64,000 nt of DNA from an uncultured bacterium (GTDB lineage Bacteria; Babelota; Babeliae; Babelales; Babelaceae), in NCBI GenBank assembly GCA_963762095.1, contig CAVXJI010000004.1:153-64152 (forward strand), read 5' to 3'. How positions within the stretch are numbered: the stretch's first letter is position 1; every line of letters begins with the position of its first letter. Below, in pieces: positions 46,866 through 58,198 of the stretch. Under the pieces are notes generated by a model. It worked only from the letters and a program-made list of their open reading frames with translations, ran no database searches and was not told where the DNA came from. Position numbers and translations under genes: made by a program.

Positions 46866-48308
46866 TTAGATTACTTTAACAGCCCGCAATTCGAGAGCTT
46901 TTTTCAATTTTTTCATACTCGACTCGCTCAATGCACTATACTTAAATCCAATCTCCTCAATGTAAGGCATCGCGAGAAACACCTCCGGGTCTATATCAGT
47001 ATGAGGATACCCGGATATCATCATGCGTTTTACAGAAAGGCCCGCAAATGCTCCGGCATTTAAAGGTGCCGCATCATAACCAAAGTAAAGGTGTAATTTT
47101 CTTAGTGGATTATAAGGGGTATTTCCTACCAACCCATTAAAGGCACCCGGCTCTATGGATTCTATATATTCACCTATATAAATGTCCTTTACTCTTAATC
47201 CAATAAAGGCTGCCGAAGAAATATGTCTTAAGTTATTTGAGGTTAGCTCTAATTCGTCGATGCTCAAGCCACTAAAGGCCCTATCCTCAATTTCAAGTAC
47301 GGCTCTAGGACCAGAATAATAAGAAGGATAATCACCAGGCTTTGGATTCTGCGTTAATATGAACTTTGTTAATTGTCTGCCTTCAAAATCGATAAATGTG
47401 TTAGCTTTTATTCGTTTTACATAATTACGAGAAAAATCTATTTCCTTTAAATCTTTAAAAATAAGTAAAGGACGTAATATTTCAGCAGAAATGGTATCAA
47501 AGGCATTGTTATTAATACACACTGAATAAACCGAACCAAAATACGAGCTTTTATTTGTTAAAACTGATTTAATCGTCTCTAAACCTTCCAAATTATTAAG
47601 CTGAAGGCCTCTGAGATTCAATATCACTCTCTCTCTGCCCCGCTCTATTCTTTCTTCAAAAATCTCAGGAGTACAATCAAGACAATCTTTTATTGAAAGT
47701 CCCCATAAGGAAGCCATATCCAGTGGGCACATGGCTGACCTTGCCTCTGGAGACGCAATCAGAATAAAATAGCGAGAAACTTGCTTTAGAAAACGGTCAA
47801 CATTGAATTTTGAGAATTCTCTTGATAACTGTTCTTTTAGCTCATTATATTTTTTTTGCTGTTGATTCCTACCCTCAAGCAAATTTTTTATAACACATAA
47901 ATATGCAAAGTCCAAAATGGGATCAGAGCCTAAATAGTTTGCAAATCTTAGGAACTGATAAGGGTCCGATATCTTTACTTCTTGTAAAAGTGCATCTGAA
48001 AGAGCCTTGCCTTTACTGTCCTTATGATAAAATAAGGACCATGAAAGAGTAGCCAATTCACTAATAAGCTTTGAAGACCAATCAAGAGGAATTGGTGCTT
48101 CCCACCCCAGGTCTTCTATCAAATTCTTAATTGTTTCAGATGTTATAGCAATTTCTCGAGACACTTCGTACTTATCCCCTTCATCATTGCCGATAAGAGT
48201 AATTACATTACCGCTAAATGGTTCTGTTGCTTTTTCAGCAGCTTTCTCACACGCTTGCAGGCTGCAGGTCATAAAGATGGTGGCAAGCAAGATAAGGCGG
48301 ATGGTCAT
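46866..48308 (-). CDS. Secreted/lipoprotein-like Skp1-like (POZ) domain fused to BspA-type leucine-rich repeats
   Basis: 480 aa. Leader is MTIRLILLATIFMTCSLQAC. ITLIGNDEGDKYEVSREIAITSETIKNLIEDLGWEAPIPLDW...YHKD...FANYLGSDPILD parallels SKP1. The C-terminal half has LRR_5-like units (IEDRAFSGLSIDELELTSNNLRHISSAAFIGL...). Confidence 0.65.
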   Translation of the reverse strand: MTIRLILLATIFMTCSLQACEKAAEKATEPFSGNVITLIGNDEGDKYEVSREIAITSETIKNLIEDLGWEAPIPLDWSSKLISELATLSWSLFYHKDSKGKALSDALLQEVKISDPYQFLRFANYLGSDPILDFAYLCVIKNLLEGRNQQQKKYNELKEQLSREFSKFNVDRFLKQVSRYFILIASPEARSAMCPLDMASLWGLSIKDCLDCTPEIFEERIERGRERVILNLRGLQLNNLEGLETIKSVLTNKSSYFGSVYSVCINNNAFDTISAEILRPLLIFKDLKEIDFSRNYVKRIKANTFIDFEGRQLTKFILTQNPKPGDYPSYYSGPRAVLEIEDRAFSGLSIDELELTSNNLRHISSAAFIGLRVKDIYIGEYIESIEPGAFNGLVGNTPYNPLRKLHLYFGYDAAPLNAGAFAGLSVKRMMISGYPHTDIDPEVFLAMPYIEEIGFKYSALSESSMKKLKKALELRAVKVI

Positions 48309-48495
48309 TGTATATCTCCCTTAATCATTATTTATTTTATATTTGAAATATAACAAATAAATCTTTAAAGGTCAATCACGATCGTTTTAAAGACATTTAT
48401 AAGCCTATAGTCCCGGAAAACTCAAGAAATGTATGTTTCTATCAGTTTCAGTTAAATCGCCGATGCACAGGGACTTTTTTCAAATCTTCTCATAA

Positions 48496-48545
48496 AAAGA
48501 GCCGGCTCTTTCTGAGATCTGCTCATAGAAAGAACCGGCTCTTTT
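48496..48545 (-). terminator. Tandem pair of palindromic hairpins after the SPFH gene
   Basis: aaaagagccggctctttt and agaaagaaccggctctttt are two copies of a ~27-nt unit. On the minus strand the downstream hairpin (the 48496..48511 copy) is followed by a T-run. Confidence 0.6.
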
Positions 48546-48575
48546 ATAGACTTAATACATTTTAAGCGGACCTAA

Positions 48576-49568
48576 TTATTGTATTTCGCCGAGCAATTTT
48601 TTAACTGCGGCTATTGAGCCACTCAGGCCGGCAGCCTCGTAAGGCACAACAATCAGTTTATTATCTTTACCTTCCATCATCTGAGGAAGAGTTTTGATAT
48701 ATTGGACCGCGGCTAAGTAAGAAAGAGCATCCTGCCCTGGAGCAGCCTTTTTAATAACCTCAATCGCTTTTGCTTCTGCATCAGCTATTTTCATGCGAGA
48801 TTCCGCTTCACCCTGAGCATTAATTACGCGAGACTCAGCGGCACCACGAGCTTTTAATATACTCGATTCTCGTTCACCCTCTGCTTGCAAAATAGCTGCT
48901 TGCTTGAGACCTTCAGATTCGATAATAATAGCACGTCGGTCCCGTTCTGCTCGCATCTGTTTTTCCATGGCTATACGAATGTCAGCTGGTGGATTTACTT
49001 CCTGGACCTCAACACGGTTAACCTTAACACCCCATTTATCGGCAGCTTCCTCTAAAATAACACGCAATTTTTCATTAATGGCGTCACGAGAGGTAAGCGT
49101 TTCATCAAGGTCTAATGAACCAATCACGTTACGCAACGTTGTTTGCGTAAATTTTTCAATTGCCTCAGGCAAATTATAGACTTCGTAAATAGCCGCTTTT
49201 GGATCGGTAATTTGATAATAGACAAGCGCATTAATTTCTAAGCTCACGTTATCTTTTGAAATAACATTTTGCTTAGGGAAATCATGCACACTTTCCCGCA
49301 AGTCGATGCGATAAAGCGTTCTTGTATACCGATAAAAGCGCTTGTCAGGCCCCAAACTAAAATGGCTCCATACCACTTCACGAGGCCGCTCTATAATAGG
49401 CATTACGATATGCAGTCCGGGCCCTAAAACACGATCATAGCGGCCCAGGCGCTCAATTATTATTGCTTCCGCCTGTTGCACCAAGCAGACTGACTTATAG
49501 ACCACAATAAGACAGATCACGGCAACGATAACAAGAAAAATGGGTAACCCCAAAAAATAACCAAACAT
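48576..49568 (-). CDS. SPFH/band-7 (stomatin-like) protein
   Basis: 330 aa. N-terminal TM, then CLVQQAEAIIIERLGRYDRVLGPGLHIVMP and a coiled Ala/Glu-rich C-terminal half. Confidence 0.88.
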   Translation of the reverse strand: MFGYFLGLPIFLVIVAVICLIVVYKSVCLVQQAEAIIIERLGRYDRVLGPGLHIVMPIIERPREVVWSHFSLGPDKRFYRYTRTLYRIDLRESVHDFPKQNVISKDNVSLEINALVYYQITDPKAAIYEVYNLPEAIEKFTQTTLRNVIGSLDLDETLTSRDAINEKLRVILEEAADKWGVKVNRVEVQEVNPPADIRIAMEKQMRAERDRRAIIIESEGLKQAAILQAEGERESSILKARGAAESRVINAQGEAESRMKIADAEAKAIEVIKKAAPGQDALSYLAAVQYIKTLPQMMEGKDNKLIVVPYEAAGLSGSIAAVKKLLGEIQ

Positions 49569-49583
49569 AATAAATCCTTTATG

Positions 49584-56883: not shown

Positions 56884-56940
56884 AGGGGTTTTCAAAGGGT
56901 CCTCCCTTTGATGCAAGTGCAGAGGCTGCAGTGCCTCTGC
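56884..56940. repeat. GC-rich structured element (GGGGTT-hairpin family copy)
   Basis: aggggttt tcaaaggg tcct ccctttga, followed by the hairpin gcagaggc tgcagt gcctctgc. Confidence 0.55.
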
Positions 56941-57030
56941 CGCCCGCCGCGTAGGCGGTTATTAATCTGTTCGCCCGCCGCGTAGGCGGTTATTAATCTG
57001 TTCGCTCGCCGCGTAGGCGTTATAAAATGA
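56941..57030. repeat. 31-bp tandem repeat, 2.9 copies, each unit holding a ccgcc/ggcgg mini-hairpin
   Basis: cgcccgccgcgtaggcggttattaatctgtt occurs twice exactly (56941..56971 and 56972..57002), plus a degenerate third copy. Confidence 0.85.
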
Positions 57031-57251
57031 GAGATAAATTTTTATAGATTTAAAGCTCATAATGGGTTTGGCGTAACTTGAATAAAGCCTGCAGGCATGT
57101 AATTTTTTAGTTTGTCTTAGACTTATTTAAGTAGTGCGTTGCATTCGTTCGGCTGAGAAGGCCTGAATCATGCCAAATCCCAGCAAGCAACAAGGCCGAT
57201 TTCTCAAACTATTGAAATTTAAGTAATTTATTTGATATCTTTTCAATTAGT

Positions 57252-57278
57252 AACCAACCGGCCGTGGTTTGGTTTTTT
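57252..57278 (+). terminator. Terminator-like hairpin plus T-run 24 nt upstream of the ankyrin gene start
   Basis: aaccaaccgg ccgtggtttggtt tttttct. The stem is 8 bp with one bulge and is followed by a T6 run. Confidence 0.5.
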
Positions 57279-57301
57279 CTAAACTTTAGGAGAATAATAA
57301 A

Positions 57302-58198
57302 ATGAAGATACGCCTTATATTATCGATAATTACATTAACTCTTGCATCTATTAATGGAGTTCAAGCCGTGCAACAGAGACAGGCAGAGCTTGAGGCTGCG
57401 GCTAAACAGGCAGAGCTCGATGCTAGGGCTAAACAGGCAGAGCTCGATGAAAAGCTTAGATTGGCCTTCGAGGAGGCGCCAGGAGGAGGCGCAAGCAAGT
57501 GGCTATTTTCCGGTGGTTATTTTACTGAGGAACAAGACAAAGAATTGTTAAAAAGTATTGAACCTCTTATAGCAGCAGGTGCCAATTTAAACCAATCTAT
57601 GGATACTAAAGCTGGAGGGCGAACACTTCTCACCTTTGCACTTAGACGCCGTGCAAAACTTGTTGTAGCCGCATTATTGAAAGCAGGTGCCGATGTCAAT
57701 TATGCCGATGAAAATAAATATACCCCCCTGCATCTTATGTTATCAAGTGGCAGTGACATTGACCTAAATGACATTGAGCTCTTACTTAAGGCGGGTGCAA
57801 ATATTAATGCTCAAAATATATACGGCGAAACCCCCCTTATGCTCTTGCTTGAGCGGATGTGGATTAACCCGGCCAAGCCCAGTTCAGAACGCGTTAAAGT
57901 AGAGCTAGTGAAAATGTTTTTAAGCAGAGGCTTGATCAAAGAGGTTGCCGCAGCACCCGAAATGTATTTTGAGCGGTTGCCAATCGAACTTCATCACTAC
58001 GTCGGTCAATTTGGCGTAAAACCACTAGATTTAAGCTTAATAGATCAGAAAGGAAGATCAACACTCTATTATGCAAAAAATGCACAGGAATCCTATAGAG
58101 TATGGGCAAAACAGCATCCTGAACGGAAAGAATACCAAGAAGGACTTTCAGCATATAATGAGATCGTTGAACTGCTTGAAGATGCTCAAAAAAAATAG
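57302..58198 (+). CDS. Secreted ankyrin-repeat protein with an N-terminal QAELxA repeats
   Basis: 298 aa. TAGGAGAA RBS and a leader ending INGVQAVQQ. ANK units include RTLLTFALRRRAKLVVAALLKAGADVN, YTPLHLML and ETPLMLLLE. Confidence 0.8.
   Translation: MKIRLILSIITLTLASINGVQAVQQRQAELEAAAKQAELDARAKQAELDEKLRLAFEEAPGGGASKWLFSGGYFTEEQDKELLKSIEPLIAAGANLNQSMDTKAGGRTLLTFALRRRAKLVVAALLKAGADVNYADENKYTPLHLMLSSGSDIDLNDIELLLKAGANINAQNIYGETPLMLLLERMWINPAKPSSERVKVELVKMFLSRGLIKEVAAAPEMYFERLPIELHHYVGQFGVKPLDLSLIDQKGRSTLYYAKNAQESYRVWAKQHPERKEYQEGLSAYNEIVELLEDAQKK
57374..57454 (+). repeat. In-frame 27-bp tandem repeat x3 inside the ankyrin gene
   Basis: gctaaacaggcagagctcgatg... encodes (A)KQAELDA units. The second and third copies match at 22 of 27 nt, differing only in the last five bases. 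Confidence 0.75.

Follow-up and report, generated by a model that had tools for sequence, protein, structure and literature searches.

The window analysed here is a 64,000-nucleotide stretch of contig CAVXJI010000004.1, and the feature of interest is an interval of about 11 kb (46866 to 58198) in which genes with eukaryote-like domains lie among housekeeping genes. With moderate confidence, this interval can be regarded as a variable island of separate effectors, one of which, a protein with a Skp1-like domain joined to leucine-rich repeats (Skp1-LRR), would dock on host Cul1 as a one-piece receptor. The original prediction had instead taken the ubiquitin-ligase-related genes of the interval, together with an ankyrin-repeat (ANK)-RING fusion further upstream, as one toolkit that assembles on, or imitates, host cullin-RING ligases. 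All six open reading frames (ORFs) that it named exist as given there. On a contig of the same strain, independent calling yields products of 480, 563, 562, 273 and 298 amino acids, and the starts of the 563-residue ANK and 273-residue RING proteins agree with those of the original prediction.

The domain assignments fared unequally. Pfam searches bear out the Skp1-like-LRR protein, the three ankyrin proteins and the WD40 protein; the RING pattern is complete but scores below threshold, and the BC-box and F-box-like assignments do not hold. Parts of the ubiquitin-ligase type are present, in the form of a Skp1 homologue, a RING-H2 pattern and receptor-type WD40 and ANK domains, but a co-selected interacting set is not supported. 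Manipulation of the host ubiquitin system by the leader-bearing products is a reasonable reading, and mimicry of cullin ligases by individual products is plausible.

The Skp1-LRR protein and its family

By homology, the 480-residue protein is a genuine Skp1 homologue joined to an LRR domain. The Skp1_POZ family (PF03931) matches residues 35-75 with 30.3 to 32.2 bits against a curated cut-off of 21.9, and BTB is absent among the Pfam matches listed for the protein at an expectation value (E) of 10 or below. A phmmer search of the PDB with residues 21-235 retrieves Dictyostelium Skp1A (E 2.9e-8) and human Skp1 (E ~1e-7), with an alignment that covers residues 8-131 of a 149-residue, loop-deleted Skp1 construct, preserves the ANYL motif and ends roughly 20 residues short of the native C-terminus. 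A profile of the whole family reaches further, matching residues 4-150 of the full-length, 163-residue Skp1 (E ~1e-14), and it also matches Elongin C (E ~1e-8). On these scores, the Skp1-like module appears closer to Skp1 than to Elongin C or BTB proteins. The literature offered no usable account of the Skp1 residues that contact Cul1, and the claim of conservation is accordingly limited to the ANYL motif.

An AlphaFold model computed with a 42-sequence alignment is a confident single body, with a mean predicted local distance difference test score (pLDDT) of 92.2 and a predicted template modelling score (pTM) of 0.88. Its elements run in the order two strands, two helices, one strand, six helices, three short helices and an LRR solenoid, and the first eleven presumably follow the order of secondary structure in Skp1. 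With an alignment of two sequences the N-terminal half was unusable (pLDDT below 50), and the larger alignment remedied this. When the model is compared with viral predicted structures by Foldseek, its N-terminal part matches a Pandoravirus Skp1 and giant-virus SKP1/BTB/POZ proteins with probability 1.0, and the remainder matches LRR and F-box-LRR proteins. Against the PDB, the whole model retrieves LRR proteins only, including the Nogo receptor and the LRRs of TLRs.

Between the two domains lies a linker that is specific to the family, with the consensus ...YYFLL...YGFSIQDYLDY.PE conserved across its members and with no match in the PDB or Pfam. The Skp1-like module carries a receptor domain of its own, and would therefore need no separate F-box partner.

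An exhaustive search of 1.84 billion representative sequences found 47 relatives at E<1e-3, about 30 of which are fusions of a leader, a Skp1-like domain and LRRs with lengths of 287-613 amino acids; the rest are ordinary eukaryotic-type Skp1 proteins. Skp1_POZ is also matched by 38 of the 47. Among paralogues, identity is highest in the leader (65-70%), lower in the Skp1-like part (52-57%) and lowest in the LRR part (38-42%). The family emerged from this exhaustive search. A word-indexed search with the full protein returned only the protein itself and one paralogue, as LRR words saturated the candidates; the N-terminal part alone returned nothing, and the family profile returned 12 matches. 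A scan of JGI metagenomes for loci of the family yielded two short contigs only.

Gene order and turnover in the island

The best genome match of the Band7 protein is a Dependentiae metagenome-assembled genome (MAG), L008, at 66% identity, followed by unrelated phyla and then by a Babeliales MAG (L016) at 56%. L008 also shares the backbone order Lgt-DnaG-RpoD-CNNM...Band7-NfeD...transketolase, and the window is assigned to an uncultured member of the Dependentiae (TM6/Babeliales-like) because of this order and the Band7 match. L016 has no synteny with the window. The Band7/NfeD pair itself is conserved in other Dependentiae.

The contents of the island differ between relatives. In L008, the interval between NfeD and transketolase holds four ANK genes and two paralogues of the 271-amino-acid gene of the window, without WD40, RING or Skp1-LRR genes, and an ABC-F gene occupies the slot of the AAA and Skp1-LRR genes. 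Comparison with related genomes had been proposed as a check on co-conservation, and this distant Dependentiae genome keeps the backbone without the WD40, RING and Skp1-LRR parts. The closest relative available, a 549-kb contig (L007/L095, ERZ25039544 contig_3835; both close-relative assemblies come from related metagenomes), has about 91-96% nucleotide identity in the backbone genes. It alone, at roughly 95% identity, keeps the gene order, but its Skp1-LRR slot is filled by a 555-residue gene and two 484-residue paralogues, whose products have 46-48% identity to the protein of the window. Duplicated fragments of the neighbouring AAA gene (its 3' end) and of the Band7 gene accompany them, a sign of tandem duplication. 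The 298-residue ankyrin protein (ANK298) is replaced there by a protein of 224 amino acids, with 69-90% nucleotide identity and indels, and the gene is hypervariable among close relatives; the 563-residue ankyrin protein has a counterpart with 94% identity.

Elsewhere, LRR tandem arrays located between SecA and FtsZ/FtsA contain members of the Skp1-LRR family, and other members adjoin a penicillin-binding protein; one contig (L088) carries a tandem array of LRR and Skp1-LRR genes. At the other Skp1-LRR loci examined, no RING gene is found nearby, and the sole WD40-type neighbour, at a distance of about 7 kb in L089, is a weak beta-propeller assignment. A GNAT gene lies some 3-7 kb from the Skp1-LRR gene in four of four loci (L088, 17796-18326; L089, 13767-14444; L092, 15302-15772; and the window, 52098-52721), which may be a coincidence, GNATs being common.

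On this evidence, the occupants of the island turn over independently of each other, and the region resembles a variable effector island and not a co-inherited system. The Skp1-LRR and ANK298 slots evolve independently of the WD40 and RING genes, which counts against a toolkit.

Over 46.8-64 kb, nucleotide identity to the close relative is a mosaic, with about 88-95% at 48.4-52.4 kb and about 99-100% at 52.4-56.8 and 61.2-64 kb, and the Skp1-LRR slot is essentially unalignable. Transfer of the WD40, RING and 271-residue genes as one block, which their identity of about 100% might have indicated, was rejected: the same level of identity is reached by the housekeeping genes at 61.2-64 kb, and the mosaic is therefore genome-wide. 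It suggests that co-occurring strains have recombined or that sequences were mixed during assembly. When positions 36866-58308 are compared with a contig of the same strain (L001, JBLFKZ010125688.1), all 52 of 52 mismatches fall in conserved genes (RpoD, CNNM, Band7, GidA and DnaG); effector genes and intergenic DNA contain none. The most likely cause is that the consensus took up reads from related species at conserved genes, and this strain comparison is therefore uninformative on selection.

Proposed mode of action

Under the favoured interpretation, eukaryote-like genes with Sec-type leaders would have accumulated between the housekeeping genes Lgt-DnaG-RpoD-CNNM, Band7-NfeD and transketolase. 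They would turn over independently, and each product most probably acts on host proteins as an effector in its own right. The Skp1-like module, once exported, would dock via its POZ core on the N-terminal domain of Cul1, at the surface that is reportedly bound by Skp1, and would replace host Skp1 there. The rigidly attached LRR domain would then present host proteins for ubiquitination, making the protein a one-piece substitute for Skp1 and an F-box-LRR receptor. The RING-H2-patterned membrane protein and the ANK-RING protein could recruit host E2 enzymes independently, as stand-alone ligases, and the ANK and WD40 proteins would be binding modules.

A broader proposal is more tentative, and is considered possible rather than probable: that the Dependentiae have secreted one-piece receptors of the Skp1-Cul1-F-box (SCF) type, in which a Skp1 acquired from eukaryotes, a linker (possibly an F-box stand-in) and an LRR domain together retarget degradation. 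If true, such receptors would plug directly into host Cul1, bypassing both host Skp1 and host F-box proteins.

Several points weigh against the favoured interpretation. Docking on Cul1 is suggested by homology alone. The C-terminal dimerisation and F-box-binding domain of Skp1 (PF01466) is not detected by Pfam in the Skp1-LRR protein; within the family it is present in 14 of the 47 matches, apparently only in stand-alone, eukaryotic-type Skp1 proteins. Only two relatives are informative for synteny, and the mosaic of 100% and 93% identity may partly reflect assembly mixing. Finally, five of the seven genes with eukaryote-like domains fall within a run of nine genes, out of about 55 in total (P ~0.016 by simulation, for a grouping chosen post hoc). 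This clustering modestly exceeds random placement, and interaction among the products is still conceivable.

Alternative explanations

The same Skp1 homology would suit a decoy or inhibitor that sequesters host Cul1 or F-box proteins and so dampens SCF activity, with the LRR domain serving for localisation. Such a role is nevertheless unlikely. The LRR domain is the fastest-diverging part of the protein and the family expands by tandem duplication, a pattern that suits diversifying target recognition better, and Pfam finds no trace of the C-terminal domain by which Skp1 binds F-boxes.

A toolkit, in which Skp1-like, WD40, ANK and RING proteins are co-selected and assemble with one another and with a host cullin into a hybrid ligase, is improbable. 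The presence of all part types within 11 kb and their modestly non-random clustering speak for it, as does the precedent of chloroviruses, which pair their own Skp1 with ANK proteins bearing a C-terminal Skp1-binding motif (PMC7019647). However, the five genes do not share one strand, and between them are the Band7/NfeD pair, a GNAT gene and the lipase-like 271-residue gene; the set is not co-conserved in L008, other Skp1-LRR loci are without a RING gene, and the Skp1-like module already comes with its own receptor.

The toolkit would also depend on the N-terminus of the WD40 protein and the C-terminus of ANK298 as adaptor-binding boxes, which had been described as a BC-box-like motif and as the start of an F-box, respectively. 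A strict, Cys-containing BC-box string and the string LP.E[ILV]...[ILVFY] do occur once each among the window ORFs, in exactly these two proteins. A loose BC-box pattern, by comparison, is no more frequent than expected by chance, with 24 occurrences among the 17.8 k residues of the window ORFs. The WD40 N-terminus (SLKDLCIKKV) matches no Pfam family at E<=10, hence no SOCS-box, and has no meaningful PDB match; the whole N-terminal region of about 100 residues is likewise without a Pfam or PDB match. For the ANK298 segment, ERLPIELHHYVGQF, no F-box, F-box-like, PRANC or other Pfam family is found at E<=10, and the sole PDB match is irrelevant (E 0.18). This segment can plausibly be read as a degenerate terminal ankyrin repeat, with LPIELHH.. 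corresponding to TPLHLAA.. and DQKGRSTLYYA to D..G.TPLH.A. With both docking motifs failing, and the genes interleaved on two strands and not co-conserved, a single toolkit in place of separate effectors is not supported.

The product of 54848-55669 scores 20.5 bits for zf-C3HC4 (cut-off 21) and 20.1 bits for zf-RING_2 (cut-off 27.3) in Pfam, and weakly matches the RING of Rad5 in the PDB. All eight ligands can be read directly in residues 55-108 (nucleotides 55010-55171), with the spacing C-x2-C...C-x-H-x2-H-x2-C...C-x2-C (C3H2C3); a hydrophobic leader precedes them, and a hydrophobic tail follows at about residues 245-268. For the upstream gene at 24820-25803, described as an ANK-RING fusion, Pfam confirms the ANK part, but the RING part is found only below the cut-off (zf-RING_2, 21.8 bits against 27.3).

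Less probable still than the toolkit is a location of the leader-bearing proteins in the periplasm or at the cell surface, as LRR or ANK adhesins or for self-protection, with no link to host ubiquitination. Their leaders do resemble ordinary Sec signal peptides, which are common to about half of the ORFs, and for the LRR part, NCBIfam ranks an LRR adhesin first, with a score far short of the cut-off. However, the Skp1 and RING-H2 folds are not known to function other than in complexes of the eukaryotic cytosol or nucleus. In addition, the Dependentiae live obligately within host cells, and ANK proteins with leaders count as secreted effectors in this phylum (PMC6561590).

Finally, mis-assembly of eukaryotic host DNA into a bacterial contig, for which the metagenome source and the signs of consensus mixing in conserved genes might be cited, is hardly credible: the arrangement is not an assembly accident, because six independently assembled contigs from different runs share it, and the genes are intron-free, equal to their flanks in G+C (about 0.39-0.44), equipped with bacterial-type leaders and set tightly between housekeeping genes.

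Leader sequences

The N-terminal leaders that had been noted on almost all of the cluster genes are real, but they are not specific to these genes. A hydrophobicity threshold is exceeded by 32 of the 65 candidate ORFs of the window, some of which are probably spurious, and by about 24 once obvious membrane proteins are set aside. The leader type is thus genome-wide, and does not tie the cluster genes together. In Chromulinavorax, signal peptides are found on 44% of coding sequences and on 78% of ankyrin proteins (PMC6561590).

Many leaders end in A/C/S-M-[D/E/Q], as in SAMDQ, SAMQQ, QAMES, FAMEA, YAMEK, ACMD and VCMQPD. Examples are found at 466-1074(-), 1249-1839(-), 5996-6550(+), 8930-10663(-), 52098-52721(+), 52795-54483(+) and 54848-55669(+), and members of the Skp1-LRR family on other contigs have the same ending (SAMD, LAMD, LSMD and AAMQ). 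This ending may represent a lineage-specific cleavage or sorting signal. At 1-1839 (-), three adjacent small ORFs of 150, 202 and 196 amino acids carry near-identical leaders, and resemble a family of secreted proteins that arose by tandem duplication.

Neighbouring genes

The features of the island and its surroundings are collected in Table 1. In NCBIfam, no family scores above its cut-off for any of the ten proteins scanned. The AAA ATPase that adjoins the Skp1-LRR gene belongs to the classical FtsH/PAN/Cdc48-type clade and is without a protease domain; its NCBIfam score for FtsH_fam is 316 bits, below the cut-off of 600. The gene is absent at the equivalent slot of L008; in the close relative, the duplication of LRR genes includes fragments of its 3' end. 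A secreted ATPase that resembles an unfoldase may merit attention as the neighbour of a ubiquitin-ligase mimic.

Two genes of the interval, the GNAT acetyltransferase and the 271-residue protein, are not parts of the ubiquitin system. The 271-residue gene has paralogues in the same slot of L008 (1402-2271 and 2317-3288, 34-36% identity), and is the only island gene besides the ankyrins with recognisable paralogues in this distant Dependentiae genome.

Just upstream of the ANK-RING gene are two further genes: 22468-24381 (-), whose leader-bearing product has a eukaryote-type lysophospholipase/cPLA2 catalytic domain (PLA2_B, E 4e-20), and 20374-21744 (-), which encodes a Schlafen AlbA_2/HATPase_c_4 protein. 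MnmG/GidA (36618-38454, +) appears to be split into two frames (36618-36920 and 36868-38454), although a related contig encodes a product of 611 amino acids; either a frameshift or a mistake in the assembly might account for this.

Table 1. Positions of the features discussed, in window coordinates, with the basis of each assignment
Feature	Position	Strand	Basis
Skp1-like-LRR protein, leader-bearing, 480 aa	46866..48308	-	Pfam Skp1_POZ + LRR_8/LRR_5
Hydrophobic leader of the Skp1-LRR protein, aa 1-20, MTIRLILLATIFMTCSLQAC	48249..48308	-	read from sequence
Skp1-like domain, aa 35-184	47757..48206	-	Skp1 alignments, model, Foldseek
Family-specific linker, aa 185-220, WGLSIKDCLDCTPE, three short helices	47649..47756	-	family conservation; model
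LRR domain, aa 221-480	46869..47648	-	Pfam LRR_8/LRR_5; pLDDT above 90
Single-domain AAA ATPase, leader-bearing	45652..46776	+	Pfam AAA + AAA_lid_3
Band7 (SPFH) + NfeD housekeeping pair, interrupting the cluster; synteny anchor	48576..50027	-	Pfam
Ankyrin-repeat protein, leader-bearing, 563/567 aa	50175..51866 (to 51878)	-	Pfam Ank_2 E 1.5e-36
GNAT acetyltransferase (AAC(6')-like), leader-bearing	52098..52721	+	Pfam Acetyltransf_8; NCBIfam matches below cut-off
WD40 propeller protein, leader-bearing, 562 aa	52795..54483	+	Pfam WD40 E 1e-30
Leader + RING-H2-patterned domain + C-terminal hydrophobic tail, 273 aa	54848..55669	+	Pfam just below threshold; spacing read
271-aa protein without leader, lipase/esterase-like motifs (IFIHG...HSHGG)	55823..56638	+	no Pfam match
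Ankyrin protein ANK298, leader-bearing, 298 aa	57302..58198	+	Pfam Ank_2 E 1e-12
ANK + RING-like fusion, leader-bearing, 21 kb upstream	24820..25803	+	Pfam Ank E 5e-29; zf-RING_2 below threshold

Comparison with known systems

Bacteria are well known to hijack host cullin-RING ligases with F-box, U-box and BTB effectors. A Skp1 copy encoded by a bacterium and joined directly to a receptor domain would gain entry differently, by replacing the adaptor and not by binding it. The Skp1-LRR family would also offer a compact natural fusion in which to study how much of an SCF ligase suffices to retarget ubiquitination, and could mark the effector repertoires of the Dependentiae, a phylum with hardly any cultured members.

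Members of this phylum, including Babela massiliensis and Chromulinavorax destructans, encode secreted ANK proteins in very large numbers together with many WD40, LRR, F-box and RING proteins, and signal peptides are frequent among them (PMC4378268, PMC6561590, PMC4776705). The ANK, WD40 and RING genes of the window fit this pattern, and the wider cluster is a further example of the effector load already described. The same three papers mention no Skp1-like protein. A literature search found no description of a bacterial Skp1 homologue, although its coverage was incomplete and it is no proof of novelty.

Eukaryotic Skp1 and the N-terminal part of the Skp1-LRR protein are significantly homologous over most of the length of Skp1, and the ANYL motif is conserved. 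The eukaryotic protein is free-standing and has about 160 residues, whereas its counterpart here is part of a fusion of leader, Skp1-like domain, linker and LRRs; PF01466 escapes detection in this fusion, and its binding to Cul1 or F-box proteins is putative.

For the toolkit idea, the closest precedent is chlorovirus PBCV-1, which encodes a Skp1 (A039L) and ankyrin proteins with a C-terminal Skp1-binding motif (PMC7019647, citing Noel et al. 2014). Both cases place a Skp1 homologue encoded by a parasite beside ankyrin proteins. However, the viral Skp1 is stand-alone with separate ANK partners, whereas the Skp1 here is fused to LRRs and the neighbouring ANK protein is without a confirmed Skp1-binding motif.

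The closest architectural analogues are the expanded families described by Domman et al. 2014, namely PEX1 of Protochlamydia (BTB-LRR) and NEX1 of Neochlamydia (F-box- or RING/U-box-LRR) (PMC4209131). According to the same paper, BTB domains are found in no bacteria besides the Chlamydiae. In these proteins, as in the Skp1-LRR family, an N-terminal domain of the cullin-ligase adaptor type is followed by C-terminal LRRs, and NEX1 has a conserved, unexplained region of about 50 residues before the LRRs that is comparable with the Skp1-LRR linker. Tandem arrays with rapid gain and loss, amounting to birth-and-death evolution, and a lifestyle as protist symbionts are further common traits. The differences lie in the lineage, which is Dependentiae and not Chlamydiae, in the Sec-type leaders that stand in place of type III secretion signals, and in the POZ module, which in the Skp1-LRR proteins appears to be of the Skp1 type and not, by comparison with the published description of PEX1, of the BTB type.

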